NCBI GenBank assembly: GCA_050084515.1
Contig: CM114271.1
Coordinates: 13,392,001-13,456,000 of the forward strand
DNA length: 64,000 bases
Direction of reading: 5' to 3'
DNA from: Blasia pusilla
Lineage: Eukaryota
Shown here: positions 1,830-32,196 of the stretch, one piece after another
Layout: each line of letters starts with the position of its first letter
How positions within the stretch are numbered: position 1 is the first letter of the stretch
Program-made: the position numbers and the translations under genes
The notes under the pieces: model-generated
Databases searched by the model: none
Told to the model about the DNA's origin: nothing
What the model saw: only the letters and a program-made list of their open reading frames with translations

Positions 1830-4800
1830 GGGGGTATACAAGAGTAGAGTGCCCCTCCCATTTGTTAATGGATTCTATTATGGATCCATGTCATCGATCC
1901 CACGTTGTGAGGCATGATGATCGACAGCCGTTGACTGTGGTCAACAAGATTGACATGCCATGGGCAGCCTTTCTCACATTTTTTAGTTTTCCCGCTTCCT
2001 ATGCATTCAAGGAGGCCAAGCTTGGCTTGTTTTGGGATGACCAGGTATAGCGGTTGGTGGAGCCCAATGTCGATGAGCGAGAGCTAGCGATGGGATTTCC
2101 CACATGAGTGACGGTAATATCGTCATTATCAGAGGCATCATGACAACGTGTCGTGAGTCAAGTGATGGACGTGAACTGCTTGGCATGGATTATCACCTTA
2201 GGAGTAGCTGAGCAACGTCATTTGAGGATGCAATAGATCATAACTGTTGCATTGGTGAGCCCCATGCCTACCAAGACGGTTGAGGCAGTGGCTAGGGGCG
2301 AGACCCGAGGAGATCAACACATGCACCATGGGTGATCGGGAGAGACACCCTTGGAATTCTTGGGATGTTTTGTAGGTACGTCGGGAAATGATAACCACAA
2401 CATCGAGGGTGGTTTAGGGTACTGCACATGGAGGAGATCAAATTTTGCAGTTGGTTGTAGGGGAGCAATCGAGTCATGTTGTCCAAGACGGGGTTGCACC
2501 ATAGCAACCACCGATACTCGCATCGGAGAATCCTACTGTAGTCACGATGGAGACTTGGGAGCCACATATGGGCCCTAAGTTGAAAGGAGGAGAGGGGCGT
2601 TGGATACATCAATTTCTTAGAAGTTATAGTAGTTGTTTTGCATTCAGCATGCATGATTTTATTGATTTGGGTACGCTGAAGGGTCTAGAGATCCGTATTG
2701 AGTTGTTGAGCGACACGTCGATCTTCCGACAACCCTACAGGTACAATGATATGGAGAGGGCTCTGATTTAGAGTAGAGCCAATATTGGGTTGGAATAGGA
2801 CTAGTGGAGATGTCGCATGGAGAGTATGCATCTAATACTATGAGTCCGTCATGCCTGCCAAGAAGGATGTGCATGGCAACTGGACGGATAGGCGGATGTG
2901 TGGAGATTACCGACCTATTAATTGGCAGATGAAGTACGATAGGTATGCCATGCCCACCCCTAAAGAGATCTTTGATGATATTGGGCTTGCGAAGATCTTT
3001 AGTTTGTTGGATCTTTGAGCCAGATACCATCAGTTGCTTATCAGATTTGAGAATAGGCAAAAGACGACATTTTGGGGCATCGATCCTTACGGGAAGGATT
3101 GCTTGTACCAATGGCCGTTCTTACCATTTGGGTTAAAGAACGCTCCGATTGAGTTTCAGAGGGTCATGGATAGGATCTTGGTAGGTCTAGATTTTTCTAG
3201 GTGTTATAGTGATGACATCGTAGTCTTTAGCGCCACGGTTGAGGAGCATGAGCGACATCTGTAGGAGGTGTTTTGACGATTGCAGTTACATGGGCTAAAG
3301 CTACATCCAGACAAGTGCAAGCTCTTCTACAATCAGATTGAGTACTTGGGTCATACCATATATCCATGTGGCCTTGGTGTGCAACAGACAAAGGTAGAGG
3401 CTATTTGATGCCCTACAGATGTGAGTCGAGTTTGTGCATTCATGGGATTGGCAAACTTCTATCGATGATACGTCAAGGGTTTCAGTTTGATTGTGAAGCC
3501 GCTAACTTGCTGACCAAGGTGGATCAAGAGTGGCACTGGGAGAGTGAGCAGGAGAGAGCATTTCAGTTGCTCAAGGAGAGGTTGACGTCTGCACCTATAT
3601 TGAGGAGACCGATCAGGGGGCCTCTGTTCCAGTTACATATCCATTAGAGCATGTTGGGGCTTGGAGCCGTGCTCACCCAACATGACGATGAGGGTAGAGA
3701 GTTTGTGGTGGCTTACGCAAGTCACTCAAACTACGTTGCGAAGGTGAATTATAGCTCATATGAGGGTGAGTGCTTGGTTGCAGTGTGGGCTGTCGCGTAT
3801 TTCAGGCGTTATTTATTCGGCAAACCCTTTACCATTATGACTGATCATCACCCACTTAAGTGGTTGATGGAGTTTGACAAGCCTACAGAGAAGCTTGCGA
3901 GGTCGGCTCTATTGTTGTAGGAGTATGATTTCTAGATAGTACATAGACCTCGGATACTCAACCAGGATGTAGATGGTTTGAGTTGTAACCCATGCCTGAG
4001 CCAGTGAGATATGTGACTAGAGCTTGATGGCATGGAGAGAGTGATGAGGAGTTGGTTCCAAGATGGCACGCGTCAGCCTATTTGCGGATGTTGGATATGG
4101 AGAGCCACATTTTTGAGACTTCGATGGCGAGGTCTAATGGAGATTCCTTAGATCTAGAGGCCGGTGAAGAGATGACATGTGGCCAAGATATTCAAGAGGA
4201 TGGAGTAGTCTTGGAGTAACTGCGTGCTCGCAACGTCGCGAGCACAATTGGTGCTAGAGAGTGGAATCGGATCCTACAATGAGCCAGATGGTTCTAATGG
4301 GAGGGGACACATATGTTGCAAGTTTGGGAGGATGGTAGAGTACGTGTAGTGCCTTATCCTTCATAGAGAGCATGTCTGGTGCGCCATGCCCACGAGGAGT
4401 AAGGTCATTTTGGAGTGAAGCGGACGTACAACTTGCTCCAGATACAGTATTGGTGGTGAGGTATGCAGGCTGATATTCAACAGTGTGTGATCGGGTGCAA
4501 ACATCGTTCAATCCTCTGACTCCACAATTTCATCCACTTCCGATCATGGATTTAGGTTATATATGGAGTTTGGATTTTGCAGGACCTTTACCTTTGACGG
4601 AGCGCCATAGTCGTTATGTGTTGGTGATGGTTCGACACTTCTTGAATTGGATAGAGTTGGTTACATTGCTTGACAAAACAAGTGAGGGAGTAGCGTATTC
4701 CTTCCTAGGTTGAATATTGAATCATTACGGCGCACCAACTCAGTTGTTGACAGACCACGACACAGAGTTTTGCGGGGAGTTTCAAGCCTTGTGTGATCAC

Positions 4801-4992
4801 GTGTTGATCGACCACCGCACCACTTCGCAAGAGCATCCTCAGGAAAATGGACTAAAGGAGAGGGTTGTGTAGACGGTGAAGAGAGGTTACGTAAGCATGG
4901 CTTGTAGAGAGGTCACCTAGGGGATTCGGACCTCCAGTTTCCGTGGTTGGCGATGGGATACAGATTCAACATGCAAGCCTCCTTAACGTCTT
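1830..4992 (+). pseudogene. Element A pol fragment: C-terminal methyltransferase part (TRD, motifs IX/X), RT, RNase H, N-terminal integrase
   Basis: EPNVDERELAMGF and VSQVMDVNCL (motifs IX/X), LPFGLKNAP..FQRVMD, CYSDDIVVF (RT), YSSYEGECL (RNase H), WSLDFAGPLP (integrase). Many stops and frameshifts. gag, protease and the MTase N-terminus are absent. Confidence 0.85.
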
Positions 4993-5472
4993 CGTCACAT
5001 CTGGGTAGCCGATAGGCCGAGATCTATCGTGGATAGGGCGTTGGAACCAGTGGACTATCTTGAATGTAACTTTGTCCCACTATGTCGGATGAGGTTGAAG
5101 ATAGGTCCATTGTGTCAGGAATGTTATTTCTGACAATTTTCATGTTGAGGTCTTTCACAGCGGGATGACTTGTTGACTAGGTCACCCGCCCCTGGTAACC
5201 TGTGCGTGCAGGTTACCAAGGGGAGGGCTATTTTTAGGGGAAGAGCCTTTTGGCTCTTCCCAACCCTATATAAGAGAGGAAGGTGGCTTTCCTAAGCCAT
5301 CTTTCTCATGTTGGGCCATTGGAGCACCTCTCTTGTATGTGTGTGAGATAGGACTAGGGTGCTAGCCTCCAGATTCCTTGATAGCATAGGGTGGACAAGG
5401 CTCAATATGCCAATGTAGATTGAGGAGTGGAGTTTTAGGCCGGGTGTACCGTTTTTACTACTCTTAATTTTT
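4993..5472 (+). repeat. Element B repeat A1 (480 bp)
   Basis: Aligns along its whole length with 17003-17483. Contains a TATATAA box near 5267. Confidence 0.92.
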
Positions 5473-6855
5473 ACATGAGAAAGATGTTAGGGGGCTGGTG
5501 GGAATTCGTTGTTTGTAGGTAGGCAAGCGAGTTGCCTTGGTCGGGAGCCCCTGGAGACGCGTGTGTTGCGGGTGTTGGTCATTTTTTTGTTCGGAAGGCC
5601 GTGGGCAAAATCGCTGTCCGTTTTTCATAGATTTCTTTGGTGCGGGTTGAAGGGGAACAACAGCTGAGTGTAGCGCACGGTGTGCAACAAGTGGCAGTGA
5701 GTGAATCAACGACGAGTGAGTGCCGCGTGTCGCAAAAGAGAGAGCTTTGTCTTGTAGTCGCCGGGGGGCTGTCAAGCAAAGGCGGCTTGGTAGCTATTTA
5801 GGTTACTTGTAGCGTTTTAGGTCATAGAGCTGTGTTAGGTAACTTGGATCCGCGGGGCTTCTAGGTACAAGCGTTGGACTTGAGCGTCTAAGGAAGGAAG
5901 AGAGAGGGGCCCGCATAGGGCCTCGTGCCCATACAGGATTGCGGCTCCATAGGGAGCCGCGCAGGTGTAGTTAAAGCAGGGCCGCAACCACATAGGGCTA
6001 CGTGCCCTCAACAGACCCCGTAGGCCCAAGGCCGCGGTAGAGAGGGGGTCGCGGGAGCTGAGGAGCTCTTAAGGTCGAGGAAGGAGGGGGTGGAAGGAGT
6101 CATTATGACTCCAAAGATGGAGGAAGGGCATGGGCAGGTGTGCCCACATAGGGCGCATGCCAAATGGGTAGAGACAGAGCCGGGAGCTAGGAGCGGGAGT
6201 GAAGGAGGAAAGAGGGGGCGTTTAGGGTCTCGGCCTCATAGGGCCGCGCGCCTAAGGGAGTAAAGAGAAGTAGTTCGGTAAGGGAGAGCACTTATGGCTC
6301 GGGATAAGAAGCTCTGAGAGAGGTTAGGATAAAGGCGGGGCTGAAAGGTGGTAGCCGGAGAGCAAGGTTGCGCGTGGCAGGGAGTTCGAGAAGTAGGGAG
6401 TAAGAGTCGGGTGAAGGTGGCGGAAGGTACTATCACCACATAGATAAGAGTGATGTGGTGACCAGGCTACCCGGTTAGGCAAGTTTGGATATGCTTACGT
6501 AGTTAGGAGAGCATACGTGGTCGATCGGGCTTCTACCAAGTTTTTCAGAGTTTAGATTTTCCGAACATTATTTTCGGAGGACTGGACTAACTGCCAGCAA
6601 GGTGGGTGAGCTACACCGACAGTTGACGACGGAGTGGTAGTGCTGGAGACACATGCACTGATGCCGACGGGTAGTCCGTATCTGTTGACGAGAGACTCAG
6701 GGTTGCTGTCAGACGGTGAGTCTGACAGGGTTGTCATCACGGCATTCTTCCAGGTTTCGGAAGAACGGGGTAGTGCAAGCACTAGTAGTGGTGGGACACG
6801 GAGTGGAGTGAGATACCGAGGGGTCACCAGTGAGAAGCTACCTCGACATCCATCC

Positions 6856-8753
6856 ATGGCTAGATCGTCATCACTAGACACTGGGTCTGGTGACGAGATC
6901 GCAGACGAAGGCAGTATCACTTGGCAGGAGATGGACAACATGGGCCATCGGGGCATGCGTCGTTTCTCCGGTGCAATGGGCACCATTGACTTAGATGATT
7001 TTATCCAGGAGTTCGACACGTGGTGCGACTTCCAGGAGATACGGACCCCGACACGGTTCAACCCTTTCATGGCATGGAAGGGGTTGTTTGAGCACTTGGA
7101 GGGTCCTCCGATGGATGATTACATGGAGTTTCGATCACTATATTCAGTAGAGATCGATGCTTGGAGGATGTATTGGGCTCCAGGGTATGTGTCCACTGGT
7201 GGTCGCAAGGCATATGATGGGATTGTGAGAGGAGAGAGACCCACACCATCAGCCCGGAGACTAGATGGAGAGGAGGGCAGTGAGACAGGCGATGTGGCAC
7301 AGATCTCTAGTGGTAGCGAGCCACCCAGCTTTAGCCCCAGTGGAGTTCTTCCGACAGTTGGGGAAGAGCTACCAAGGCATACACACCAACAAGCTGAAGA
7401 GTCTACAGGATATTCAGCGACGATCAGGTGAGAGTTTGAGAGAGGCATTCACGCGCATGAGGAGGCTGATCATTGCTACGTATGGAGTGACTGAGGCGCA
7501 GTCAGTCCAGTATTGGTATGGGGTTCTGGACTGAGAACTACGGAGGAGAGTCCGAGATGCGGTGCTAATTCACACAGCAAAGCCCACATTGAAGGTGATC
7601 TTTGAGTTTTTTGAGCGTATTGAGCTCAACATGAGTGAGGAGCAAGTAGTGACCGCTGGATTTTCTCGAGAGTCGACGGATCCACGAGCGACGGTGACCC
7701 CACAGGTGCCACAACGAGCACCAGTACCACAGGAGCGGGCCGGTGTGCCCAGAGAGCAGGTCGGGTACCGTGAGCCTATAAGGCAATGACCCATACCTAC
7801 ATATGTTGCCCAGTAGGCACCGATGTGGTCTTGTTGGACGTGTGGAGGGGCCCATAGGCAAAGAGATTGCCCACAGCATGGGAGAGGACCACGAGCGCCT
7901 CCGATTGCTCAAGAGCCACAGAGGAAGTCCCCACCACAACCCTAGTGTGACTATTGCCACAGATATGGTCACACTAGGGATAGATGTTTTGACCTTCGCC
8001 GAGAGGCACGTCCAGAGGTAGGCCAAGGGCCTGGGGGCGATCGTCTTGGAGGAGGTCGGGGAGTTCTTCCTGGACATGGTGGTAGAGGACCACCACCAGC
8101 CAAAGGAGATGGAGTCGGAGCACCAGAGTTGGCACTTCTCACGCGCATGGATCAGTTGGAGCAGAGGATTGCTGCCAGGACGATGATGCAGCTCAAGGAA
8201 GGCACAGAGCCGCGAGCAGCTAGTGTGGCTCCAACTTCTACCTCTTACCTTGACCCGGGTGAGGATCTTGCCAGTATGGGATTTATGTGTAGTGCAGCCT
8301 AGGTTGAGGCAGCTGCAGTGGTGACTCGGGGTGCTGCGAGAGGCACCGAGCCATCGAGAGGTGGAGTTGAGATTGACCTACTAGAGGGGATCAATGAGCG
8401 GCAGGCCAGGGTTCCACAGTCATTCACATTGTCGGCGGCACTACACACACTAGAGCGAGCAGTGGTGAAACGTGGAGTAGTGTTACTAGATAACCGAGCG
8501 GGAGTATTTTTCTTGGTTAGTCCAATGGGGACAGTATACCACCCGCAACGCGTCCTACTTGATTCGGGAGCGCAACCCTTGATGTTAGGGAAGGCGGCGT
8601 GTTTAGCGTTGGGGTTACGGAAGGCCGACATTGAGCCTTGTCCCTTCCAGATACAAACCTCGATTGGGGGCGTGTCACCCACGCAATATATGACTCGACA
8701 GGAGATAGTTGTCAGAGTCCAGCCAGAGCATGCGACGGATAGTGCGAGGTGCG
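6856..8753 (+). pseudogene. Element B gag plus aspartic protease (decayed)
   Basis: MARSSS...DLDDFIQEFDTWCD...; zinc knuckles CWTCGGAHRQRDC (~7832) and CDYCHRYGHTRDRC (~7947); RGG-rich stretch; protease active site VLLDSGAQ (~8550-8575). Confidence 0.85.
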
Positions 8754-11700
8754 GTAAGAGGAGAGGAAGAGAGGAAGAGAGGAGAGAGGAGAGAGGAAAC
8801 TACCTTCAACCGAAATAGATACTTTTTTTTGAAGAGAGTTTCCGTTGGGTTGAAGAGAGGAAACTTTTTGTGTGAATTTTTGCACTTTTTTGTTCATTTA
8901 TTAAACAATCCCACAATTTTTTTTTCCTCTTCCATATTTTGGCAACCCCTATGAGTCCGACGAGTTGCAAATTGCACAAAATTTACAAAACTGAAAAATC
9001 AGTGGAATCATAAGTGTGGAACCAATCACTTTTTCCATCCAAGGTCTGGAAAAAATCTATCATTTGCCCTGGGCTCAATAGAGTTCAAGCTCACAGTGAA
9101 GGTTGAGAAAAAAATAAAAGTACAATCTAAAACCTCATTTTGCATCCTCAAAGTGGTTTGTTTAAAATACTTGAACTTCTTTGAGGGGTGGGGTGGTTGG
9201 TGGATTCCTACTCCTACCTCCGACTCTCTTAAAACTACCAAACAACACATAGTACATGTGCTTACAAGGAAATACCTTTTGCCACTTGTCTCTCTTTGGA
9301 CAAAGTCATCACATGAACATGTGGGAAAGCAACAGATGTGCACCACATACACCCTGTGACACTTGAATTTCTGTGTTGTTCTGACCCAATACATCCTTCC
9401 TATTCCATTGCCACTCAAGACATCTTTCGTGGCGATGATCTCCATTTTGCCTCCCAAGCTGGTGCAATTCATTTTGCTCTCTCCACCATTGGCCTAGACA
9501 TTCTGTTTCTCTTCACCCCATTTCTAGACTCAAGCAGAAATAATGGATTGAGATCATCCACCTTCTCCGGGTACATGTTGACATCAATCTTGGGTTGAAT
9601 CGAAATCGAAGGTCTCTGTAATCGAACATGCTCGAACTTCCCCGTCTCTGAGTCGAAACCGACACTTGTAAGATTGTCCACTTCATCTTGAGTGCGATTC
9701 GTGTACTGCGGCGATGGGCCAAATCGTGGGGGTATTCGGGAGCTCCAATGGCAGCGGATAAGACTTCGAAAGCGCAAGATTCATTTGGGCAGAAGAAGTA
9801 CTTCAATTGATCCCCGGTCCTCGTGAAACGATCAAAGGTTTTGAGTCCCCAAAACCCAGGCAGTGGTCGTCCAGTCCTTGTACAGTTCTTATTTAGGAAA
9901 GTGCCGCATGCTCTCCTAATGCCATCTGATCCTTCCTTGCACGTGGGTCCACATCCTGGGTCGCTCCGAGATATATGCCACCGTTTTAGGTTGCAATCCA
10001 CTTCCATTACCGGAATCCCATATTGTTGAACCACCCCAGTGAGAGGATGTTGCAAACTTCCAGCAACGGAGGGCTTTTGAAATAAAACATTCACTGATTT
10101 TGGAGAAGTAACTCCATCACGGATTTGGGACGGGTTCGGGGTCCCCGAATACCTGGGCGGTGTAATTTCCTCATCCAAATCAATCACCGGATTTGTTCCT
10201 CGATGCTGCCTCTTCACCTGCTTGAAGTCAAGATACTTATCTGGTCTCCACGAGTCTCGTTCGGACTGCTCTACCACCATCTGTATGGGACGTCTTGAAA
10301 CCCGCCCACGAATATCCCCACCTATGTGTACGTCTTGCTCGAGTGGAGTTCCAGCTACGCACCGGTTGAAGGCTTCGACATACAATTTTTCATCACCAGA
10401 TCTCACAGCCGCCCTAACATAGAGCTCGTAGATCGACGACCCTTTTCCTTTTGTTATGCCTCTTGTGAGGAAGATATGGGATGCTGCAGACTGTAGCATT
10501 GCTCTTGCCTGGTCTTGTTGGCATGCCTCCACAAGTGAAATTCGTTGGCATGCTTGTGACGACCTCCAAGAGGAATGAACACTTTCTGCTCCACTTGTGT
10601 TGGGGTAGAGGGCATTTTCATGAACGTTCAATCCCTGCAACGACGGCAATGTTAGAAGGGAACGAAAATAACCCAGGAGTAAAAGAAATAAGCGACCTGT
10701 CGGAACCAGACGGGTTGCAGGCCCGAGGCATCCCATTAACGACTCTGCGACCCGTCGGGTCCCGACGTGTTGTAACCCTAAACCCACCTACCGCAACCCG
10801 TCGGAACCCGACGGGTTGCAAGGCCGAGGCATCCCATGAACGACTCTGTGACCCGTCGGGTCCCGACGGGTTGCACACTCGAGACGACACCAAACATCTG
10901 GATGCAACCCGTCGGTTTCCGTCGGGTTGCACACTCGGGCAACCCGTCGCATCCGACAGCTTGCTTGGTTTCTTGGGTTTGAAATCCATATAATTCCCAC
11001 GCTTCTCACCCTGAGCTACAACTTTACAAACAATTCTCAGCGTGAGCTTGACAAGACAAAATGGTGAACTCACCTGCCGCATGAAGTTTCCCCATTGTCT
11101 CATACGTACAGTCCACCAACTCAACCAAGAGCACAACTCTTTGTACTTCCCCTTAATCGCATGCTTCCTCCACCACCCATGAAGTTCTTCCTGGCAGTCC
11201 ATGGCCTGCTTCAAGGTTTTTCTGCCCTTGCAACGTTGGAGTAGAGTGACATGCTCTGTCCTCTTATTCTCCTTGATGCAAGATTTGGTGTACCGGGTCA
11301 CAGACTGTTGCTAATGGAAAGCATCCGACCTTTCCCTCTCCGGTTGAACCTCTCCACCCCAGAACACTTCCCGGATAGGAATCCACCCAGGTTGTGCATT
11401 GTCCGCCATGAACCCATAAATTTCCGGAGGTGGCCTTTTGTTTTCCTTCATCACCTCCAATAAGAGTAACAAAGACACATCTTCAACCGCCAACGTCTTC
11501 GCCTTTACTTCACACACAAATATAGTTTTGAGTCCCTTCTCCACATGGTCATAAACGTGAGCACCCATCGTCAACCATCCATTCAGCACTCTGTAGCAAA
11601 TATCAAAGCTGACCCAAATCCCGTAAAGATCTTCCCCTTCCCTCATTCTATCTATAAGATCGAGGCCACTCGAGGGACCTGTGGTTGACATTTTGAAGAC

Positions 11701-11946
11701 ATAGGCCCTGGATCCCTCGCCTCCTTGGCCCATGAACTGCCATCTCTGAATGAATGGAAATCTGGAGTTGGCCTTGATTCTGGCGATGGCATCCATTTCG
11801 GCCGTCTTTCCATCGAACTCAGATATCGACGCAACAAATTCCGGAAGCATTCAGGATCAGCGAGAAATGCGAGATTTTCCCAGAGTTGTTTCTCCTCAAC
11901 CGCCGTGATCTCGCCCTGTCCAGGGATTCCAAGCAATTGTTCCTAT
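8754..11946 (-). mobile_element. 5'-truncated Mutator-like (MULE) transposase gene fragment with SWIM zinc finger, inserted in the element B protease
   Basis: WVSFDICYRV, YGFMADNA, AFH and PNTSGAESVHSSW (MULE DDE-like motifs). CFPTCSCDDF..PCKH (SWIM) at ~9260-9335. GT-AG intron 11073-10635 joins MRQ|GLNV in frame. Flanked by GGTGCG at 8748-8753 and 11947-11952. No TIRs. Confidence 0.7.
10692..10964. repeat. Array of six ~27-bp palindromic units inside the MULE intron
   Basis: The unit at 10793-10819 is GCAACCCGTCGG-AAC-CCGACGGGTTGC (perfect 12-bp stem). Five degenerate copies surround it. Confidence 0.85.
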
Positions 11947-12475
11947 GGTGCGCACACGTGTGATTACGACACCAGCTGAGCCGTACCATGCGTTGGTGGG
12001 GAGAACACTATTATATCCCCTAGGTTTCATCCTTGACTTCTGGGAGGAGACCGTTGCTTATCGGCCAAGATGGCGGTCAAGTGACGGCCGGATGAGTTAG
12101 TTACCCATGCAGTTTGCGGAACGAGGTGGTCGATCACGAGGCGAGTCTGTGACCACGTTGGCAGCTTTCACAGGTAGTGTTAGTTGGCCAGGAGAGTTGT
12201 TGGAGGGGAACGCACATGCGGAGGATGTCCCAGTAGCAGATAGTCCCACGGAGAGACAGGCCATGGTGGGTGTCTCTTCCCATGTTGGCGAGACCTCTTC
12301 ACCATTGTGGGGTACGACTTGAGAGCTACAGAGGAGTGCCGACGACCTCGTGAGGCATGCGTGGAGTCATGCTTTTATCCCGGAGCAGCGAGAGTCACGT
12401 GGCAATTGGACTTTTGGAGTGGAGACGTTGATCCCACTAGATACCACACTCGCTGTGTGGCAGTGCCCAGAGGAG

Positions 12476-13430
12476 GGTGTTAGGGTGTTAGATCTCTTCA
12501 GAGGGATTAGCACCAGATTAGCTGCAGTATTGCACGTGGGCATACGGGTGCATCAATACCTTTATGTGGAGAGAGATGAGACCGCGCGGCGAGTATCATT
12601 ACGTTACGTGGCGAGATTGGTCTAGAGGTATCGTGAGTTGTTGCCGGTATTTGCAGTACGGGGATTTCAGCATACACTACCCGCCGACATCTCTTTGGTG
12701 GGGGTGCAGGATCTAGATAGAGTTGGCACCATTCATTTGGTGATTGATGGATGGCCATGTCTAGGTCATTCATGAACTGGCCGAGGATTTGGATTGCAGG
12801 ATCCGAGGTCAGGGATGTTTTGGGAGATGCTGCAAGTAGTACGATACTTGCAGGAGAGTCAGACATGTTCTCCAGCATTTTGGAGAATGTGCCGTTGTTG
12901 GGAGACACTCGTGCTTGTGTGATGACAAGTGTGCATTAGGTGAGGTCCTGGTTGGGACCTGATGTGTTGCTAGATGCAGCGAGAGTTGGGTCACGTGCCC
13001 ATTGTCCATGACTGTGGTGGAAGAACTTGATACCATCAGAGGTACTGAGTCGAGCATACGATGGAGTCTAGAGAGCACCACATCTCATAGTGGATGTTAT
13101 TTTGAGCTTAGGGCGTCGATCTCAGGTGGTGACGCGGGATGATGGACCACCGTTGGCAATGGCCAATAGGGTGGGGGAGTTGAGGGCAGCCTTACCTACG
13201 TTGGTGAGCTTCCCAGCATCCCATGCCTTTCGTCAGGGAGGGTCAGGCATGATTTGGGATGAGGTGACTGGAGCATTGGAGGAGCCTACCGCAGATGAGC
13301 GCGAGCACGCCATGGGGTTTGCTACCCGTACTACGGCGGTGCCAGGGATGATTGAGGCATCCCGGAGATAGGTGTTGGGGCAGACAATGGACCTCAACTG
13401 TCTCACATGAATAGTTAGCCTAGGTATGGC
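12476..13430 (+). pseudogene. DNMT3-like cytosine-C5 DNA methyltransferase domain inside element B pol
   Basis: Motif I VRVLDLFRGIST (~12479), II YLYVERD, IV LVIDGWPC (GWPC 12749-12760), VI LENV (~12880), VIII GSRAHCP*LWW (decayed RxR), IX EPTADEREHAMGF (~13282), X VLGQTMD (~13372), in canonical order. Contains stops. Confidence 0.88.
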
Positions 13431-13724
13431 TGAGCAGAGACGGATGCAAGTGACATCCATGCCGTCACGTCCACGAGTTAGACCATTGCCTACAGGGTCT
13501 GTACAGGCATTGGTTGGGGCCGAGACGAGGAGAGATAGGCACCCATGGACTTCTTGGGACGTCGTTCGAGCAGAGAGTGCAAAGACGGCCAGAGTAGAAT
13601 ATGTTCATTTTTTGGATGTTGAGCATAGTGTGGGAGGTCAGAGTGGAGTGGCTATTGCGGAGGTGGCTAGGATTGCTACATAGCAACCAAAGCCGGAGGT
13701 TGCGTCCTCTCCAAGTGAGGTCAC

Positions 13725-16700
13725 GATGGAGACTTGGGAGCCTGTGATAGGTCTCAAGTTGGTAGGAGGAGAGGACAGCGAGTTCATAGGTTTCTGAGAG
13801 GTCATGTTAGTTGTTTTGCCTTCAGTATGAGAGACTTGAGTACGCTGAAGGGTCCCGGGATACGGATTGAGTTGGCTAGTGATACGCTGATCTTTCGTCG
13901 ATCCTACAGGTATTTTGATATGGAGCGAGCCTTGATTCAGAGCAGGAGTCATGACTTGTTGGAGGCAGGTTTTCTGGAGTTATCACATGGGGAGTATGCA
14001 TCTGCCACAGTCATGTTGGCGAAGAAGGATATGTATGGCAATTGGACGGATAGGCCGATAGGTGGAGATTACAGTCCTATCAACCGACAGACCACATCAG
14101 ATCGGTACGCCATGCCTACTTCCGAGGAGATCTTTGATGCGGTAGGGCATGCAAAGATCTTCAGTACTTTAGATCTCCGTGCTCGCTATCATCAGCTTCC
14201 TATCAGGTTGGAGGACAGGGAGAAGACAACATTCTGGGGGATAGATCGGCTCGGGAGAGATTGCTTGTATTAGTGGCGGTTCTTACCATTTGGGTTAAAG
14301 AACGCGCCTGTAGAGTTTCAGAGAGTGATGGATAGGATTCTGGCTGGCTTGGAGTTTGTACAATGCTACATAGATGATATTCTTATCTTCAGTTCCACAG
14401 TTGAGGAGCATGAATAATACCTGTAGGAGGTGTTTCGGAGATTGCAGTAACATGGACTGAAGTTACATCTAGGCAAGTGCAGATTCTTTCAGGAGCAGAT
14501 TGAGTATTTGGGACACACCATATACCCAAGTGGGTTAGGCGTTCAGCAGACGAAGGTAGAGGCTATTGCGTAGATTCCAGGCCCTACAGATGTGAGTCGA
14601 GTCCAAGCATTTCTTGGACTGGCAAACTTCTATCAACGGTATATCAAGGGTTTTAGTGCGATCGCAAAGTCTTTGACCTTGTTGACGAGACTTGATCAGT
14701 TTTGGTGGTGGGGAGATGATCAGGAGCGAGCATTTCAGGAGCTCAAGGATAGGTTGATGTCCTCACCTATTTTACAAAGACCAATTAGGGGTCGCCCATT
14801 CCAATTACATACGGATTGGAGCATATTGGGTCTAGAAGCAGTGCTTACTCAAAGGGATGACAAGGAGAGGGAGTTCGTTGTGGCTTACGCGAGCTGATCG
14901 AACAACATTGCAGAGGCAAAGTACAGATCCTACGAGGGAGAGTGCTTGGTTGTAGTGTGGACTGTGGCACATTTTAGGTGCTATTTATTCGGCAACCCTT
15001 TCATACTTATGACTGATCATCAGCCGTTGAGGTGGTTGATGGAGTCCGACAAGCTAACGGGAAAGCTTGCCATGTGGGCTCTATTTCTACAGGAGTATGA
15101 GTTTGAGATGGTTCATAGGCCAAGCCGGCTGAACCACGATGCGGATGGGTTGAGTCGTAACCCATCTCCGAGTGAGAGAGACGACAGAGGAGCTCACTGG
15201 CACGGAGAAAGTGATGAGGAGATGGTGCCCGGTTGGCATGCATCTGCCTATCTTTGTTGGTTGACTATGGCAGGTCAGCCACAGATGATGACTCCAGTGG
15301 TGGAGCTCGATGATGAGTCTTTGGATCCGGAGGTCAGTGAGGAGGCGACATGTGGTCGTGATATCCATGACGACGTGGAGGTTGTGGAGTTGTTGCGCAC
15401 TGGCGTCATAACGAGCACAGTGAGTGCTAGGGAGCAGGATCGGATCCTACAGAGAGCCAAGAGGTTCAGATGGGAAGGGAATCACATTTTGCGGGTATGG
15501 GGAGATGGTAGGATACGAGTAGTATCTCATCTTTCCCAGCAAGCACGTGTAGTGCAACATACCCATGAGCAGTTGGGACGTTTTGGAGTTAAGCGTAGTT
15601 ACAGCTTACTCCAGGTTTAGTATTGGTGACGCGGCATGCATACTGGGGTACAACAGTTTGTGGCCATATGTATGGTATGTGATAGAGTGCGAACATCCTT
15701 CAATGCTCCCACTCTACAGTTACATCCTTTGCCGATTATGGGTTTAGGTTATCGGTGGAGTTTAGACTTTGCGGGACCTTTGCCATTGACGAGGCGTCAT
15801 CATAGGTACGTGTTGGTCATGGTGGAGCATTTCTCCAAGTGGATAGAGTTGGTGGCACTACCGAACAAGGCGAGCGAGGGAACAGCTTATGCATTTCTAG
15901 ATCGTGTGCTTAGTGACTTTGGTGCACCGGCGGAGGTGTTGACTGACCAGGGTACCGAGTTCAGGCCTTGTGTCATCAGGCGTTGATAGAACCCCGCACC
16001 ACGTCCAGAGATCATCCTAAGGAGGATGGGTTGGCGGAGAGAGTGGTACAGATGGTGAAGAGAGGATTGCACAAGTATGGCTTGCAGCGGGGACAGTTGA
16101 GGGAGTGGGACCTACAATTGCCATGGTTGGCTATGGATTATCGCTTTAGTCGGCAGGCATCCTTGGCGTCATTTTCACCGTACTTTTTGCTCTTTGGGAG
16201 AGAGCCAGATTTACCTGCAGCGATTCAATGTGACATGGCAGAGGTGTTAGATCTTGATGATCCAGATGTGTGGGTACAAGCATGTTCTCAAAGGGCGGAG
16301 GTTTTTCGTAGAGTTATGCCTATGGCCTTTGAGAACTTAGCTATTGCTCAGCATAGAGATACATTGAGGTACGCGACCACTCGTGGAGGAAGCTATCGTT
16401 CAAGGATTAGGAGGTTTCATCTTGGAGATAACATGTATTTACAGCAGGCATTACCCACGACGCTAGATGTCACTGCACGGCACACAATCCTACGTGTGCG
16501 CAAGGTATTATCGACCGGAGTCCTCATGTTGGAGGGATGGGATGGTATAGTTTGGAAGGATCATGTGCGCAATTGTGCGCCATGTCATCTTCCAAAGTGG
16601 ACGGGACAATGGATCCGAGCTTGGCAGTGGTACCTGCAGCTTGAGGTGTATGTTGTGCAGATCTGCGAGGGGTGTAGCCATCATGTTGGTATGTGATGGT

Positions 16701-16787
16701 TGTTCTCGAGGATGGCATATGTCATGTCTGACCCCCCCTCTTGATGTGGTTCCCACGAGACGATGGATGTGTCCTAGATGTGTATAG
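13725..16787 (+). pseudogene. Element B RT, RNase H, integrase and C-terminal PHD finger
   Basis: IFSTLDLRARYHQL, CYIDDILIFS, FQLHTDWS, TDHQPL, HHCC zinc domain, WSLDFAGP, TDQGTEF, DGLAER; PHD CMLC..MLVCDGCSRGWHMSCLTPPL..PTRRWMCPRC (~16650-16782). Confidence 0.93.
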
Positions 16788-16852
16788 GTAGTAGGTCATG
16801 TGAGAGAGATGTGATATTGTCTATCTGGAGTTCGGGGGATCCAACTGCCAGC

Positions 16853-16862
16853 TAGGGGGGCG
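16853..16862 (+). promoter_or_regulatory. Polypurine tract upstream of B1 in element B
   Basis: CCAGCTAGGGGGGCG. The same motif lies before B1 in C (20211-20226, minus) and in A (40656-40670). Confidence 0.75.
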
Positions 16863-17621
16863 GTTGTGTGATCTTCATGTATATGTATGAGTTGATTTTT
16901 TTAAATGTGTGGATCGACCCGTGTGTGGGGAAGATTGGTGTTTTGTGGTGTAGATATGAACATCAATGTATGTTGTGTAGCGATATGTATGCGCACGACA
17001 GCTGTCACATCTGGGTAGCCGATAGGCCGAGATCTATCGTGGATAGGGCGTCGGAGCCTGCGGACTATCTTGAGTGTAACTTTGTCCCAGTGTGTCGTAT
17101 GAGGTTAAAGATAGGTCCATTGTGTCACGAACATTGTTTCTGGCAACTTTCATATTGAGGTCTTTCACAACCGGGTGACTTGTTGACCAGGTCACCCGCC
17201 CCTGGTAACCCGTGCGTGTAGGTTACCAAGGGGAGGGCTATTTTTAGGGGAAGAGCCTTTTGGCTCTTCCCCAACCCTATATAAGAGAGGAAGATGGTTT
17301 TCCTAAGCCATCTTTCTCATGTTGGGTCGTTGGAGCACCTCTCTTGTATGTGTGTGAGATAGGACTAGGGTGCTAGCGTCCGGATTCCTTGATAGCACAC
17401 GGTGGACGAGGCTCGATATGCCGATGTAGATTGAGGAGTGGAGTTTTAGGCCGGGTGTGCTGTTTTTACTACTCTTTATTTTTGTTGTGTGATCTCCATG
17501 TATATGTATGAGTTGATTTTTGTACATGTGTGGATCGACCTGTGTGTGGGAAAGATCGGTGTTGTGTGGTGTAGATGTGACCAGCGATGTATGTTGTGTA
17601 GTGATATGTATGCGCACGACA
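16863..17621 (+). repeat. Element B 3' block: B1 (16863-17000) - GC - A2 (17003-17483) - B2 (17484-17621)
   Basis: B1 and B2 are 138-bp direct repeats, both ending ATGCGCACGACA. A2 matches A1. Confidence 0.92.
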
Positions 17622-18337
17622 TCTTTCTCACCATACTTGTTGCTTTAAGGCCGAGAGCCAGATTTACCTACGGCCATTCGTCGAGATGTTGTTGAGGTAT
17701 TCAACCTTGATGACCCTAATTTATGGATGCGAGCATGTTCTCAAAGGGCTGAGTTGTTTCGGAGAGTGATGCCCATGGCGTTTGAGAACTTGGCCATTAC
17801 GCAACATGGGAATACGTTGAGGTATGAGACTATTCAGGGAGGTGGTTATCGACCGACTCTTCGGAGGTTTGATCAGGGAGACTATGTCTACTTGTAGCAG
17901 ACGACACCCACGATGTTGGATGTGAGCGAGGGGGTACGTGAGATTTTGCCATGTGGTGTTCTCTTATTGGAGGAATGAAATGGTATGGTTTGGAAGGACC
18001 ATGTGCATCACTCTGCTTCATATCACCTTCCTAACATTGACGGTACAATTGATGCAAGCTTAGCAGTAGTTCTTGCAGGCTTGCGATGTATCTTGTGTGG
18101 TTTCACCCGTGGTGCAGCCACTTTGCTAGTCTGTGATGGATGTTTGAGAGGATGGCATATGGTATGGTTTGGAAGGACCATATGCATCACTTTGCTTCAT
18201 ATCACCTTCCTAACATTATCGGTACAATTGATGCAAGCTTAGCAACAGTTCTTGCACGCTTGCGATGTATCTTGTGTGGTTTCGTCCGTGGTGTAGCCAC
18301 TAAGCTAGTCTGTGATGGCATGTTTGACTCCACCTCT
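17622..18337 (+). pseudogene. Element A integrase C-terminus and PHD N-part, with a local tandem duplication
   Basis: REPDLP, MPMAFENLAI, VWKDHV, CILCG..LLVCDGCLRGWH. ~17980-18160 is repeated at ~18160-18320. Confidence 0.85.
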
Positions 18338-18453
18338 TATTGAAGATTAAGTTACAGTCAAGCTCATGAGATATCTGAACTACTACATTTGGTACTCACA
18401 CGAAGTAGGGGAGCTTAATATTGGTTAGTCAGTTAAGCGCGATTATCTTAACT

Positions 18454-19476
18454 TGTCGTGCGCCTACTCTCCTTGAACGTTAATCTTGTTTGTTGCGGAA
18501 GCGTGCGTTTAGTAGGTCATGCTCTCAATGCTGATCTGCATCCAAACACGCACTTTGGTTAGTCGGGTCTTGGATCAATCAACGGGATTACATCTCGTTC
18601 TCATCTCTCATCAAGCTCAACCTTCCTAGTTTCGCGGTTTCCAACACGGGCAAATCTCGGAAGACTTGGAACAGACTTTCTGGTCGGTTCAAGAACCTGA
18701 AACGGCGTTTCGTGCCTAGCGGTTCCAACTGTCCAATGGACATCCAATGAGTTTCTCATCAAGACTCACACAAAGTGAATCTCGGGTTGGAATCTAAGTG
18801 TGGCGTACAAAGTCCACTCCCTTGGATCAGGTTTGGGTTTCGAGTTCCCACGCCAAACTCCCGTTCCATCCTGTGCCTGTAAAACGCCGTTTGGCGCCCA
18901 AAGTGGGGATTTATTTCCCGAGACATCTCGGAGAGACTCCTCCCTTACTAGTACTTTTGGGGATCTCCAAGGGCCCCCTACATTTAGGGAAAGACACCCG
19001 GGCCTCTCCAATTGGCCCTCAACCCGATTGCTCTCTCAATTGTTTTCGGCCAATATCTCAGCCATTACTTATGCGTTTGCTCAGATCTTTAGTGCGTCGG
19101 AAGCGTCTTAAGATCAACTTTCCAACGCGCCCTTATTTGTCCCAAATGCATCTTGGAGCTCAACGTTATGGTCCTAAACACAATCAGATTCTCCCAAACG
19201 CTAGTCGTGTTCCAAACTGGTTCTCACCTCTTTGGCAACCAACCTCCCAAGACTCAACTCATCTCAAGTCTTGGCTCACGTTTGGTCTAGGTTTCCTGAT
19301 CACGACCACTAACGCATGAAACGCACAACTCTGTTTCGCGTTTCGTCTCTTAGACTTTTCCAAGAGACTTTTCCAAACGCCTCTCCAAAGTGCAAACTTC
19401 GCAGCGTGAGTTCCCTTGAGTTCTGATGTTTCACTTGACACCTATTTGGTGTTGTTTGGTTATGAGGGTCGCGACA
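18454..19476 (-). mobile_element. Solo LTR of the element D chromovirus family
   Basis: TGTCG...CGACA, 1023 bp, aligns with 24807-25823 and 31162-32191. TSD TAACT at 18449-18453 and 19477-19481. Confidence 0.93.
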
Positions 19477-19640
19477 TAACTAGGTTTAGTTAATCACAAT
19501 TAGTCTAACTTGAGACTGTAGTTAAGGTTAGGGTTAAGGTTGCTTGTACATACCCTATATAATTGAGAAGGGGACCAACCTCCATTCATTCTCGCATTAC
19601 AAATTTTGTTCTCCATGGTGATATGTGAGTGTGAGAGCCG

Positions 19641-20212
19641 TGCCTTGCGAATCCACATCGTCATACAACATACATCGCTGACATACCATACTCACATACA
19701 TACATAACATAGACGAGAGCATACACAAACATAAGTGTACCATAACTGAAATCCTACTGTCATAAACACGTATAGAATCACATACAATCAAGCCAAACCC
19801 ACTCCACGATGGGAGAATCCAGGTCGAAACTTGCGGGAACCACCATAGCTAAGAGCTCTACTCACTACCAAGGCTAACTCCCAACGCAACAGGCTCAACT
19901 CAAAGAACTAATTGTTCTTTGAGTGCACTCCATACTATATCCTCCAACCTAAGAGCGGGCCCTACTGGAAAAGTCACCCTCAACTGAGTAACCCCCAACC
20001 CTTTGTATGAAACCGCATCTCTACCTAGAAACTACGGCCCTACATAAGGTATGGCCTCTACTAGCACACTATACTCTATGACATAATCCGTATGGTCATG
20101 ACAGCCGTCGTACCCATCCACATCGTCATACAACATATATCGCTGACATACCATACTCACATACATACATAACATAGACGAGAGCATACACAAACACAAG
20201 TGTATCACAACT
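19641..20212 (-). repeat. Element C 3' block: B1 (20212-20106) - GC - A2 (20103-19784) - ~36-nt spacer - B2 (19747-19641)
   Basis: B1 and B2 are 107-bp direct repeats. A2 (320 bp) matches A1 at 35208-34889. The PPT lies immediately upstream of B1. Confidence 0.9.
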
Positions 20213-20393
20213 CGCCCCCCTAATTGGCGGTTACGTCCCTCTAACTCCCAGGTAACCCTATACATCTACTACATGCTATACACCTTCTTGGGTGCACGAA
20301 TCAAAAGGCCGGGTGCTAGGTTGCCCCATCGTTAGTCGCCTATCTGTAATCCATATCACGCAAAGATCAAGTCATCTACCTCTCCTAAGTACA

Positions 20394-23300
20394 TCAAGGA
20401 CAAACCCACCTTCCAGTAGGAACAACATCCATACGTGGAATCAAACACATCATGTGCCAACCCCTAGAACATCGATCACACACCAACATACGGGCTGCGT
20501 TACTAGCAGACCCACACAACATATACCTCAAGCTAGCACGTATCATGGCTAAGCTTGGGTCAACAGTACCATCCACATTTGGAAGATGACATGGCGCACA
20601 ATTACGCACATGGTCCTTCCAAACAACTCCATCACGACCCTCCAACATGAGAACTCCAGAAGCTAACACCTCTTGCACTCGTAAAATAGTGCGGCCTGCC
20701 GTCACATCCAACGTTGTCGGTGCAATCTGCTGAAAATAGACATAGTCCCCCACATGGAACCTACGAATCGATGGTCGATAACCTCCACCCCGAATGGTTG
20801 CATACCGCAACGTATCCCTGTGTTGAGCAATGGCAAGGTTCTCAAAGGCTATTGGCATAACTATCCGGAATAGCTCTGCCCGTTGAGAACACACTCTCAT
20901 CCACATCTTTGGGTCATCAAGGTTCACCACCTCACTAGACTCCCAACGAATTGTTGCTGGCAAGTCTGGATCTCGACCGTATAACAGAAAATAAGGTGAG
21001 AAGGAAACCAAGGATGATTGGCGACTGAACCTATACCCCATGGCTAACCATGGCAACTGAATATCCCAGTCTCCAAGATGCCCCTTCTGTAGGCCATACT
21101 TGCGCAATGCCCTCTTCACCGTCTGAACCACACGCTTAGCCAAACCATCCGCCTTTGGATGATCTCGAGACGTGGTCTGATGATCAATCAACGGCTTGTC
21201 ACACAAGATCTGAAACTCACCCTGAAACTTTGTACCCTGGTCGGTCAGCACTTCAACTGGTGCACCAAAATGACTAAGCACTCTATCAAGAAACGCATAC
21301 GCCGTTCCCTCACTTGCCTTGTCAGGTAATGCCACCAACTCAATCCACTTGGAGAAGTGCTCCACCATCACCAACACATATCGATAATGTCGTACACTCA
21401 ACGGTAACGGTCCCGCAAAGTCCACACTCCAAAGGTAACCGAACCCCATAATAGGCAAGGGGTGTAACTGTGGTGTAGGGGCATTGAATGATGCCCTCAC
21501 TTGGTCACAAACCATACAACGTGACACCAACTGTTGTACCTGAGTATGCATGCCACGCCACCAATACTGACCAAGGAGTAAGCTATACGTACGCTTTACC
21601 CCAAAATGTCCCAACTCCTCATGGGCATGTTGCACAATGCGCTCTCTCTGAGCCAAATGCGGCACTACTCGTACTCTACCATCCTTCCACACACGGAGAA
21701 TATGTGTTCCCTCCAATCGATGCCTCTTAGCACGTTGAAGAACACAGTCTCGTTCCTTGGCACTCACTATGCCTGGCACCCTACTGGTCCGTAGGAACTC
21801 CAACACCAACGCATCATCATGAATATCACACTGATCCGTACCACCATCTCCAACCTTAGGATCTGAAGGCTGGCCATCTATCCTCTGACTAGAGTAAGAT
21901 GTCATGTGGTCCTCCATACTAGAGTCCACCCCTAACCAACATAAAAAGGCGGATGCATGCCAACCTCGCACCATCTACTCATCAACCTTGCCATGCCATC
22001 TAGCCCCAGTTGCATCCTCTTGGCTAGTACATGGGTTCCTACTCAACCCATCAGCATCAAGGTTGGCAACTCCAGGTCTATGTACCACCTGGAAGTCATA
22101 CTCTTGTAAGATAAGAGCCCATAGTGCAAGCGTCCCTGTAAGCTTGTCAGACTCCATTAACCACTTGAGCGGTTGGTGATCAGTAATAAGGGTAAACTGT
22201 GTGCCAAACAAGTAACACCTAAAGTGTGCCACAACCCACACTACTGCCAAGCACTCTCCCTCATATGAACTGTAGCGTGACTCCGATGCATTATTCGAAC
22301 GACTTGCATAGGCTACCACAAACTCCATATGCTCATCATCATGTTTTGTCAACACCGCTCCAAGTCCCAACCTACTCCAATCAATGTGTAACTGAAATGG
22401 GTGCCCTCTGATAGGTCTCCTCAAGATAGGCGCAGCCACCAACTAGGCCTTGAGCTCCACAAAAGCTCTCTCCTGATCATCTCCCCAATGCCACTTTGAT
22501 CTGATTTCAGAAATTGGTTCAAAGGCTTTGCCATAGCACTAAATCCCTTCACATACCTCCGATAGTAGTTCGCCAATCCCATGAATGCCCAAACTCTACT
22601 CACATCTACTGGACGTGGAATAAGTGCAATAGCCTCCATCTTTGCTTGCTGAACTCCCAAACCACATGGATAGATCACATGATCCAAGTACTCAACATCC
22701 TCATGGAAGAACTTACACTTTCCTCGATGCAAACGTAGACCATGAGCTTTCAACCACTCAAACACAATCTGCAGATGTATCTGATGCTCCTCCACCGTGT
22801 TACTCAACACCAAGATATCATCAATGTAACACCGAACAAAATCCAACCCTGCTAGGATCCTGTCCATCACTCTCTGAAACTCGGCAAGTGCATTCTTCAA
22901 CCCAAAGGGTAAGAATTTCCACTGGTACAAACAATCCTTGCCATGAGAGTTGACACACCAAAATGTTGTCTTGGCCTTGTCACTTTCCCGAATCGGCAAT
23001 TGATGGTATTATGCCCGAAGATCCAAAGTACAGAAAATCTTTGCTTGTCCCACCACATCAAAGATCTCCTCAGGTGTAGGCATGGCAAACCTATCGGCCT
23101 TGGTTTGCCGATTGATAGGATGGTAATCTCCACACATCCGCCTATCCGTGCAGTTGCCATGCATATCCTTTCTAGCAGGCATGAGAGTGGCCGATGCATA
23201 CTCTCCATGCGACAACTCCACTAATCCAGCCTCCAAAAGGTCCAACGTCCTACTGTGAATCAGGTCCCTCTCCATATCATTATATAGGTAGGGACGATGA

Positions 23301-23465
23301 AAGATTGGCATATCACTAGCCAAATCAATCCGTATACCGGGTCCAACCAAAGCACCCAACTCCTTCATTCTAAAGGCAAAACAACTCCTATAAGCACGTA
23401 GGAACTGTGTCAAGCGTCGTTTCTAACCTCCCGTAAGCTTGGGCCCAAGTAATGGCTCCCAAGTC
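20394..23465 (-). pseudogene. Element C RT, RNase H, integrase and PHD finger
   Basis: ORFs 23009-23413, 22421-22999 (CYIDDILV), 21975-22442 (RNase H) and 20394-21974 (526 aa: HHCC, DFAGP, TDQG, DGLAKR; MLCG..MLVCDRCSRGWHMMCLIP..WVCP). Confidence 0.93.
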
Positions 23466-23739
23466 TCCTCCACTAGCACACTAGAGGGAGAGGACGATGC
23501 CATTGGCTGCTACGCAACCCCCTCACAGGATGGTACACCCTTAGCTACACCATCATCTGAGCAAATAACTCCTCCACCAGCATGAGCAACCAACTCCACA
23601 TGCCCAACCATTACATCCCATTTACTCCAAGGATGCAAAATACTACTCTCCTCGCCCCTAGCCGATGCCTTTACCGTCCCGGTAGCCATCGAGCTCATCA
23701 CAAGGGGTGGAAGACCCACAGACATAGTCCGAAGTCGAC

Positions 23740-24350
23740 GCTGCTCGACCATACCAAGACTCAAAATCCAAGTCAAACAATTCAAGTCCATGGCTTGACC
23801 CAACACATGACGTCGTGAAGCCTCAAAAATGGAAGCAACCGCTGTCACACCAGTAGCAAATCCCATCGCACGCTCTCTCTCATCAGCGCTCGCCATCATC
23901 CGGGTGTGAGTGTCACCCAACAATGGAACATTCTCCAGAATGTAAGTTGGAGCACGTACCTGATGAACGTGAAGATGTCGTAACACCCGTAACATCTCCC
24001 AAAACAATCAAGACCTAGGGTTGTGTAATCCCTCACCACGACTAGCACGTGTATGACCTTGACATGGCCATCCAGCAATCACCAAATCCACAAGACCAAC
24101 CCTCTCAAGGTCCTGCGCCCCCAACAATGCAATGTGTGACGGCAAAGCACGCTGGTATCCACGAATAGCTGATGGCGGCAACAACTCAGGATATCTCCGC
24201 ATCAACTGACCAATATGTCGGGATGAGACTCTTTGGGTTGTCTCATCGCGCTCCACATACACGTATCTCCGCATAGGAATATCGGCCTGCAACACTGCAG
24301 CCAAACCAGTACTAATCCTACCAAAGAGATCTAACACACAAATGGATGTA
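23740..24350 (-). pseudogene. DNMT3-like C5 methyltransferase domain in element C, with an internal deletion
   Basis: ICVLDLFGRISTG (I), YVYVERD (II), VDLVIAGWPCQG (IV, catalytic PC), FWEMLRVL, YILENV (VI), DERERAMGF (IX), VLGQAMD (X). Same reading frame as the downstream RT ORFs (starts 24649, 24007, 23413, 22999). Confidence 0.9.
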
Positions 24351-32191: not shown

Positions 32192-32196
32192 CAACT

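Follow-up and report, generated by a model that had tools for sequence, protein, structure and literature searches.

The interval 12476-13430 (plus strand) of the window, a stretch of 64,000 nucleotides of Blasia pusilla DNA, is very probably what decay has left of the methyltransferase domain in a Ty3/Gypsy-type retrotransposon that has an integrase and split direct repeats, and about the identity of the domain and the architecture of the element as such we have little doubt. Transposable elements are nested within one another in the window, and tblastn with two Marchantia proteins, P0001 (Gag-protease-methyltransferase) and P0008 (methyltransferase-RT), and with Sphagnum P0015 mapped three copies, A, B and C, of one kind of element there. 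All three copies are dead and without functional consequence themselves: each of them is broken, as a preliminary description of this DNA had already remarked. Copy B has seven in-frame stops and one frameshift, copy C a stop and a deletion, and copy A four in-frame stops.

In copy B the methyltransferase motifs I to X follow each other on the plus strand in the order that had been described for a C5 methyltransferase, and the coordinates given for the domain proved to be accurate. Motif I (VLDLFRGISTR) lies at 12479-12526, the motif II region at 12557-12580, motif IV (GWPC) at 12734-12772, motif VI (ENV) at 12877-12906, motif VIII at 12967-13008, motif IX at 13291-13320 and motif X at 13372-13407. 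The reading frame is interrupted by stops at 12623, 12773, 12937, 13009, 13069, 13369 and 13408 and by one frameshift at about 12875-12876. The statement that copy C (minus strand) holds the same domain is correct in that a remnant of it (23768-24343) is present in one frame, with motif I at 24343-24305, motif IV at 24088-24050, motif VI at 23944-23912, motif IX at 23887-23858 and motif X at 23806-23768; the remnant is not complete, since about 120 codons, comprising motif VIII and the target-recognition region, have been deleted and an in-frame stop stands at 24010. Copy A has the C-terminal half of the domain (about 1739-2320, plus strand), as had been noticed, and keeps motifs IX and X (2069-2188). 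Several residues that are invariant in the relatives are lost or replaced by stops in A, B and C.

The Pfam family PF00145, the profile proposed in the preliminary description as a check, was matched by the stop-masked read-through of copy C, in which X was written for stops, at 29.3 bits (E 7.4e-7; cut-off 22). The N-terminal half of copy B reached 17.9 bits, which is under the cut-off, its C-terminal half gave no PF00145 match, and the unbroken ORF pieces taken singly gave no Pfam methyltransferase match; intact relatives score 31-51 bits with the same profile. A profile HMM of the family domain scored 447.7 bits on copy B (profile positions 2-341), 215.6 and 77.8 bits on copy C and 133.3 bits on copy A. 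The PF00145 match on copy C and these profile scores argue that the likeness of the domain is not due to chance. The CpG observed/expected ratio (0.57-0.67 for the dead copies, 0.55-0.69 for intact relatives) gives overlapping ranges and does not separate the two.

By sequence and by predicted fold, rather than by phylogenetic placement, the domain is nearest to DNMT3 and can in this sense be called DNMT3-like, which agrees with the resemblance suggested earlier. With two relatives as phmmer queries against the PDB, DNMT3A, DNMT3B and DNMT3C came out on top (E 8e-11 and 9e-10), followed by tobacco DRM (4e-7 and 1.5e-3), with bacterial enzymes and DNMT2 behind it; the PDB matches listed for these two queries included neither DNMT1 nor chromomethylase. 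The fold comparisons rest on an intact relative, L012, and not on the broken copies. Its AlphaFold model (pLDDT 89.7, pTM 0.90) retrieved by Foldseek, among the matches listed to rank 50, exclusively DNMT3A, DNMT3B or DNMT3C (E about 1e-18). VIA-align against 48,161 chains likewise placed DNMT3B (Z 27.4) and DNMT3A (Z 27.3) first, followed by M.MpeI (24.5), HhaI (21.3), DNMT2 (about 20), DNMT1 (17.9), DNMT5 (17.7), ZMET2 (17.2) and DNMT3L (10.2-10.7). Solved C5 methyltransferases align to the model with Z 17-27, and the methyltransferase fold, with a target-recognition domain, is predicted to be present and to match DNMT3A/B best. M.MpeI trails DNMT3 by just 3 Z units, a modest margin that speaks against an unqualified DNMT3 label.

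The catalytic domain of animal DNMT3A and DNMT3B is accordingly the best match found (E about 1e-10, Z 27, TM 0.8 on the target), and it shares with the element domain the order of motifs I-X and a short target-recognition region. However, identity amounts to only about 20-24%, and the element domain differs by additional sequence between motifs II and IV, by a longer stretch between motifs VIII and IX, by the lack of PWWP and ADD domains, by PCQ in place of PCN, and by its membership in a Gag-protease polyprotein. PWWP and ADD gave no Pfam match in ORF1 of the intact relatives; protist and algal DNMT3s are likewise described as being without companion domains (PMC12344493), so that the absence of PWWP and ADD is not strictly defining. 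Motif IV reads PCQ, as it does in bacterial enzymes and in DNMT1, and the aligned site of DNMT3A is PCN, an observation which weighs against a simple DNMT3 label. Plant DRM is the second-best family by sequence. DRM enzymes are circularly permuted, with motifs VI-X before I-V, whereas the motifs of the element domain run unpermuted from I to X; together with the VIA-align result for DRM2 (Z 9.2, 131 residues), in which only the N-terminal half of the L012 model was aligned, this rules out a DRM identity.

The element that carries the domain is best seen in copy B, which occupies 4994-17620 (plus strand) and lies within the integrase gene of another copy, with copy A on its left and fragment D (17621-18320) on its right. 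The integrase sequence of copy A halts at 4993 and restarts at 17621, and a short near-duplicate of the target is found at both junctions. Copy B begins with the 5' terminal repeat A1 (4994-5472; 92.3% identity to 17004-17483), followed by Gag and protease (6931-8755; tblastn with residues 1-703 of Marchantia P0001), the protease active site DSG being at 8561-8569. A foreign insertion of 3.2 kb (8756-11956), recognized as a gap in the tblastn map, splits the copy downstream of the protease; its minus-strand ORFs are without any Pfam match. The linker from the protease to the methyltransferase domain follows at 11957-12475 (linker and methyltransferase together cover 11957-13626 in the tblastn map). 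Beyond the methyltransferase lie the end of ORF1 (13681-13689), a decayed region with RT, RNase H and integrase core (13752-16150), and a PHD finger at the C-terminus of the integrase (16647-16784; PF00628, 42.8 bits). The copy is closed by repeat B1 (16863-17009; 89.8% identity to 17484-17630), repeat A2 (17004-17483) and repeat B2 (17484-17620), which forms the 3' end of the element; all these features are on the plus strand.

Copy C (19651-35213, minus strand) is interrupted by a different Gypsy element that is nested in it (24805-32193). Its Gag and protease are found at 33971-32193 and its methyltransferase region at 24805-23567, with Pol onward to about 20400, and its repeats are A1 at 35213-34889, B1 at 20212-20116, A2 at 20108-19784 and B2 at 19747-19651. 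Copy A, on the plus strand, opens partway through the methyltransferase, within its C-terminal half, at about 1739 and extends to about 4968. The repeat order A1 ... B1-A2-B2 is common to copies B and C, and we take it to be the split direct repeat layout of PAT/Ngaro-type DIRS elements. Since another copy's integrase gene encloses copy B, with junctions at 4993 and 17621, repeat B2 is part of the inserted element, and a reading of the terminal repeats as plain LTRs is ruled out. RT, RNase H and a Gypsy-type DDE integrase were found by Pfam and tblastn in the same element as the methyltransferase, and also in intact relatives. The PHD finger of the integrase resembles most closely those of CHD4, KMT2C/D, PHF12 and DPF3.

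Relatives of the domain were found in liverworts, mosses, green algae and metagenomes. A word-indexed protein search with copy C, in which 8000 candidates were scored, returned 37 proteins at E <= 1e-3; the top matches were many hypothetical proteins of Marchantia polymorpha (63% identity) together with proteins of Calypogeia fissa and Sphagnum fallax, and further searches of this kind added Sphagnum troendelagicum, S. jensenii, Mesostigma viride and Chromochloris zofingiensis. None of the proteins in these word-indexed results carried the name DNMT3 or DRM, and no Klebsormidium sequence was among the search matches. A Scenedesmus 'pol' protein was added by cluster look-up, which supplied an organism name for this one cluster of the 19 queried. 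HMMER against 1.84 billion representatives gave 2524 matches at E <= 1e-3; their number fell to 765 at 1e-10 and to 227 at 1e-30, and many of the best 150 of the 2524 are 1000-3456 residues long; the only addition from an ESM Atlas search was a Streptophyta methylase cluster. A metagenome scan yielded 598 pattern matches, of which 358 encoded a relative and 80 were kept. An uninterrupted methyltransferase domain was present in just 5 of these 80 loci, so that decayed copies are the rule there as well. A FastTree phylogeny of 223 domain sequences, which was built without copy A (too short) and the Sphagnum rows (below the 280-position filter), placed copies B and C in an 18-row clade with six Marchantia sequences and one from Calypogeia (local support 99), their nearest relatives being liverwort sequences. 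The relatives in Marchantia, Calypogeia and Sphagnum suggest a large lineage (227 clusters at E <= 1e-30) that extends into land plants.

To judge from the residues that its relatives have kept, the domain is catalytically conserved. Across 27 relatives with 35-65% identity, the invariant positions include the F and G in motif I, GWPCQG in motif IV, ENV in motif VI and AH.R in motif VIII. The dN/dS ratio of the methyltransferase between copies B and C is 0.17 (bootstrap 0.09-0.26, 185 codons), a rough value since the synonymous sites of the two are saturated (pS about 0.64 in the methyltransferase); the ratio for RT-RNase H of the same pair is 0.10. Cleaner values were obtained from intact metagenome loci, with 0.15 for the methyltransferase between L030 and L033 (dS 0.25), and with 0.13 for the methyltransferase and 0.06 for ORF2 between L030 and L034. 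The preliminary description had named a ratio near 1 as the mark of neutral cargo; the values found point to purifying selection that held the domain while the subfamilies diverged. The divergence itself, which had been proposed as well, is visible in the window, where the three diverged copies, with a pS of about 0.64 between B and C, represent more than one subfamily. It is therefore extremely improbable that the domain is neutral cargo, or that a host DNMT pseudogene has come to lie beside a retrotransposon by chance. The three broken copies of the window and the 75 of 80 metagenome loci without an intact domain would be in line with such a reading, but the order Gag-PR-DNMT-stop-RT recurs in three diverged copies and in many species, dN/dS is 0.13-0.17 and the catalytic motifs are invariant.

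The same invariance bears on a non-catalytic role resembling that of DNMT3L, in which the protein would bind or misdirect the methylation machinery of the host. DNMT3L has the same fold (Z 10.2-10.7), and a Klebsormidium homologue showed no activity in yeast, a result that its authors do not take as decisive (de Mendoza et al., 2018; PMC5890265). However, none of the 27 relatives departs from the catalytic Cys, ENV or the SAM-binding motif I, a conservation which a purely structural role would not need, and we consider such a role very unlikely.

The domain had been described as embedded in Pol. It does sit between protease and RT, but it ends ORF1 (Gag-PR-DNMT), and an in-frame TAG stands before RT. 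In all three copies the tail behind the methyltransferase terminates at this TAG, which is followed by CAA-CCA in copy A (2502-2510, plus strand) and in copy B (13681-13689, plus strand), where it forms a read-through context of the tobamovirus type, and by CAG-CCA in copy C (23504-23512, minus strand), where RT comes next in the same frame. The domain of copy C is therefore in frame with RT, as had been stated, but only across the TAG at 23512. Annotated Marchantia and Calypogeia proteins stop at the same point. In the intact metagenome loci L030 and L034, ORF1 runs from the protease and methyltransferase to TAG and is followed in frame by an ORF2 of 1047 residues, which encodes RT, RNase H, the zinc and core domains of an integrase and a PHD finger. 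The stop context is TAG-CAG-TTA or TAG-CAA-TCA in L030, L033 and L034, with the in-frame ORF2 of 1047 residues in each.

Among the 71 metagenome loci with a motif IX-X anchor, T(AG/AA)-CAR-YYN was found at a fixed distance in 31 (25 in frame; 22 with TAG and 9 with TAA), and all 31 belong to the close group, in which they make up 31 of 40 loci. The remaining 31 anchored loci form a distant group; in its protein relatives P0069 and P0073 the domain lies between RNase H and integrase. In most metagenome loci the second codon after the stop is CCC and not YYA (27 loci have CCC or CTC). The 9-mer is present four times in the window, which by our own arithmetic is about the chance level, so that only its position and its conservation between saturated copies carry weight. 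A fourth TAGCAGCCA, at 32710 on the minus strand, is out of frame with Gag by the same arithmetic and was set aside as a chance occurrence.

UAG-CAR-YYA has been reported as the consensus of efficient read-through in plant cells (PMC3159437). We think it fairly probable, on the strength of this stop context, that occasional read-through of UAG yields Pol. Tobamovirus-type (type I) read-through and the Gag-Pol of MLV likewise have an in-frame UAG between an upstream product and a polymerase (PMC3159437). The two codons after the stop in A, B and C match the CAR-YYA of the tobamovirus-type context, whereas many relatives of the element have CCC as second codon. If read-through does not take place, splicing or separate initiation might bypass the TAG, or the TAG might be the plain end of a Gag-PR-DNMT gene. 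The Marchantia gene model P0008, which fuses the methyltransferase to RT and skips the stop region, would fit this, as would the prevalence of CCC over YYA in the metagenome loci and the nine TAA stops. It is nevertheless rather unlikely, since the stop and the next two codons are kept in A, B and C despite saturated synonymous sites, in intact loci the stop is always followed immediately by an in-frame ORF2, and the context fits the plant read-through consensus (PMC3159437).

Working relatives of the element have two reading frames in one register. ORF1 encodes Gag, an aspartic protease, a linker of about 150 residues and the unpermuted DNMT3-like domain and ends at UAG followed by CAR-YYA; ORF2, which would be reached by occasional read-through of this UAG, encodes RT, RNase H and an integrase with a C-terminal PHD finger. 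If Pol arises by read-through, the methyltransferase would be produced with every Gag molecule and hence far above RT and integrase, and the place of the domain before the leaky stop leads to a concrete and testable prediction of dosage. The protease of the element may release the methyltransferase, the freed enzyme may then carry out de novo cytosine methylation of the new cDNA or insertion of the element, and the PHD finger of the integrase might read histone tails at the target. Cytosine methylation is the main weapon of the host against transposons, and a transposon that encodes a de novo enzyme is therefore counter-intuitive.

De novo methylation of the cDNA or insertion of the element itself was proposed by de Mendoza et al. 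(2018; PMC5890265), and we regard self-methylation of the cDNA as a possible, still tentative, function of the domain. An active enzyme might also have another target, either the RNA of the element, in the manner of DNMT2, or host DNA in trans. DNMT2 enzymes have the same fold (Z about 20), production at the level of Gag would suit a role bound to RNA or to the particle, and the published text considers both RNA methylation, in the case of the LINE-borne DNMT, and effects in trans on the methylome of the host (PMC5890265). In sequence and fold, however, the DNA enzymes DNMT3A/B are nearer to the domain than DNMT2 is, and the arginines of motif VIII are retained; a target of this kind seems quite unlikely to us. 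Self-methylation of cDNA would also be part of a wider picture, in which an old group of elements spread across the green lineage, with integrase, DIRS-like split repeats and an epigenetic kit of their own, still has living members in bryophytes. This kit would comprise a DNMT3-type writer, encoded before a leaky UAG, made one-for-one with Gag and packed in the particle, and a PHD reader on the integrase, and it would allow the element to methylate its own cDNA and to choose or mark its chromatin site. The picture as a whole is rather unlikely; if true, it would mean that the element sets its own epigenetic state rather than leaving that to the host. Since Marchantia, as a model plant, can be transformed and its methylomes are published, the action and the substrate of a retrotransposon DNMT, left open in 2018, would be directly testable there.

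Gypsy-type retrotransposons with a DNMT3 are already known, with one case in print from a charophyte alga, and close relatives are found here in liverworts and mosses. The work of de Mendoza et al. (2018), which the preliminary description had given as precedent, was cited correctly (PMC5890265), and a paper of 2025 that cites it speaks of DNMT3s inside retrotransposons 'in streptophytes and dinoflagellates' (PMC12344493). KnitGypsy-Dnmt3 of Klebsormidium nitens is likewise an integrase-type Gypsy element with an intronless, unpermuted Dnmt3-like domain in its polyprotein (PMC5890265). It has purifying selection in common with the elements described here (Ka/Ks < 0.2 there, 0.13-0.17 here), and, according to the legend of Fig. 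4c, DIRS-like repeats with Gypsy domains, which compare with A1 ... B1-A2-B2 in copies B and C (PMC5890265). The elements of the window and those of Klebsormidium, compared by published description, may form one lineage, for which the shared DIRS-like layout is the best available sign. The differences lie in the host, a charophyte there and liverworts, mosses and green algae here, and in the leaky stop after the methyltransferase and the PHD finger of the integrase, which find no mention in the main text on KnitGypsy-Dnmt3 (PMC5890265). As far as the published text goes, the yeast assay of the Klebsormidium retrotransposon DNMT, which gave no methylation and which its authors do not take as decisive, is the only published bench test of such an enzyme from the plant lineage (PMC5890265).

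SymbioDIRS-Dnmt3 and SymbioLINE-Dnmt of Symbiodinium are likewise described as retrotransposon-borne DNMTs, and the SymbioDIRS-borne enzyme is reported to carry out de novo CG methylation in yeast (PMC5890265). These elements belong to another host lineage and are a tyrosine recombinase DIRS element and a LINE by their description, in contrast to the DDE integrase found here. A literature search outside subscription journals and supplements found no paper describing retrotransposon-borne DNMTs in bryophytes, nor one on a Gypsy element that combines a PHD finger with a DNMT. PHD fingers as such are known from green-algal Gypsy elements, for instance Gypsy-7a_cRei of Chlamydomonas, which shares with our elements a green-lineage Gypsy polyprotein with PHD finger and for which a methyltransferase is not part of the description given (bioRxiv 10.1101/2022.06.16.496473). 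To the known cases the present analysis adds the position of the domain in ORF1 before a leaky-stop context, split repeats for which a nested insertion provides confirmation, and the extension to liverworts and mosses.

The integrase of the DNMT-bearing, Gypsy-type retrotransposons ends in a PHD finger (PF00628), located at 16647-16784 in the plus-strand copy B and found at the same place in ORF2 of the intact metagenome loci L030 and L034 and in the database relatives P0066-P0073. Among PDB structures, it is matched best by the PHD fingers from CHD4, KMT2C/D, PHF12 and DPF3. In chromoviruses the end of the integrase carries a chromodomain, whereas in the DNMT-bearing lineage this position is occupied by the PHD finger.

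A distant branch of the family, comprising P0069, P0073 and the metagenome loci L045-L080, has the order RT-RH-DNMT-INT-PHD in one ORF, with the methyltransferase placed between RNase H and integrase. The methyltransferase domain has therefore either been shifted within the polyprotein or been taken up on two separate occasions. Another relative, P0255 (455 residues, 51% identity), is labelled as a DNA cytosine methyltransferase from a Candidatus Obscuribacterales metagenome-assembled genome; its source is probably a eukaryotic contig binned among bacteria.

The broken copy A (1739-4993) and fragment D (17621-18320) are the two halves of a single older element, interrupted by copy B, which landed in its integrase gene. 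Fragment D retains a decayed PHD region and contains an internal 169-nt duplication (17980-18147 and 18159-18327). Split direct repeats of the form A1 ... B1-A2-B2 were found in copy B (4994-5472 and 16863-17620) and in the minus-strand copy C (19651-20212 and 34889-35213), combined with a DDE integrase in one element. The coding strand of the DNMT-bearing elements shows a strong excess of G over C (GC skew 0.2-0.26; plus strand at 1-8000 and 12000-18000, minus strand at 20000-34000), so that the orientation of each copy can be read from the skew profile alone.

Copy B is interrupted by a 3.2-kb insertion (8756-11956), which includes a 101-nt tandem duplication (10692-10873) and long minus-strand ORFs of 424, 230 and 179 residues, for which Pfam returned no matches. 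A separate Gypsy element is represented by three copies of its 1-kb LTR: two (24803-25823 and 31159-32198) border the insertion of this element that is nested in copy C, and the third, a lone LTR (18450-19483), adjoins the 3' end of copy C. A decayed Copia-type element with gag, integrase and RVT_2 lies at 36129-39071.
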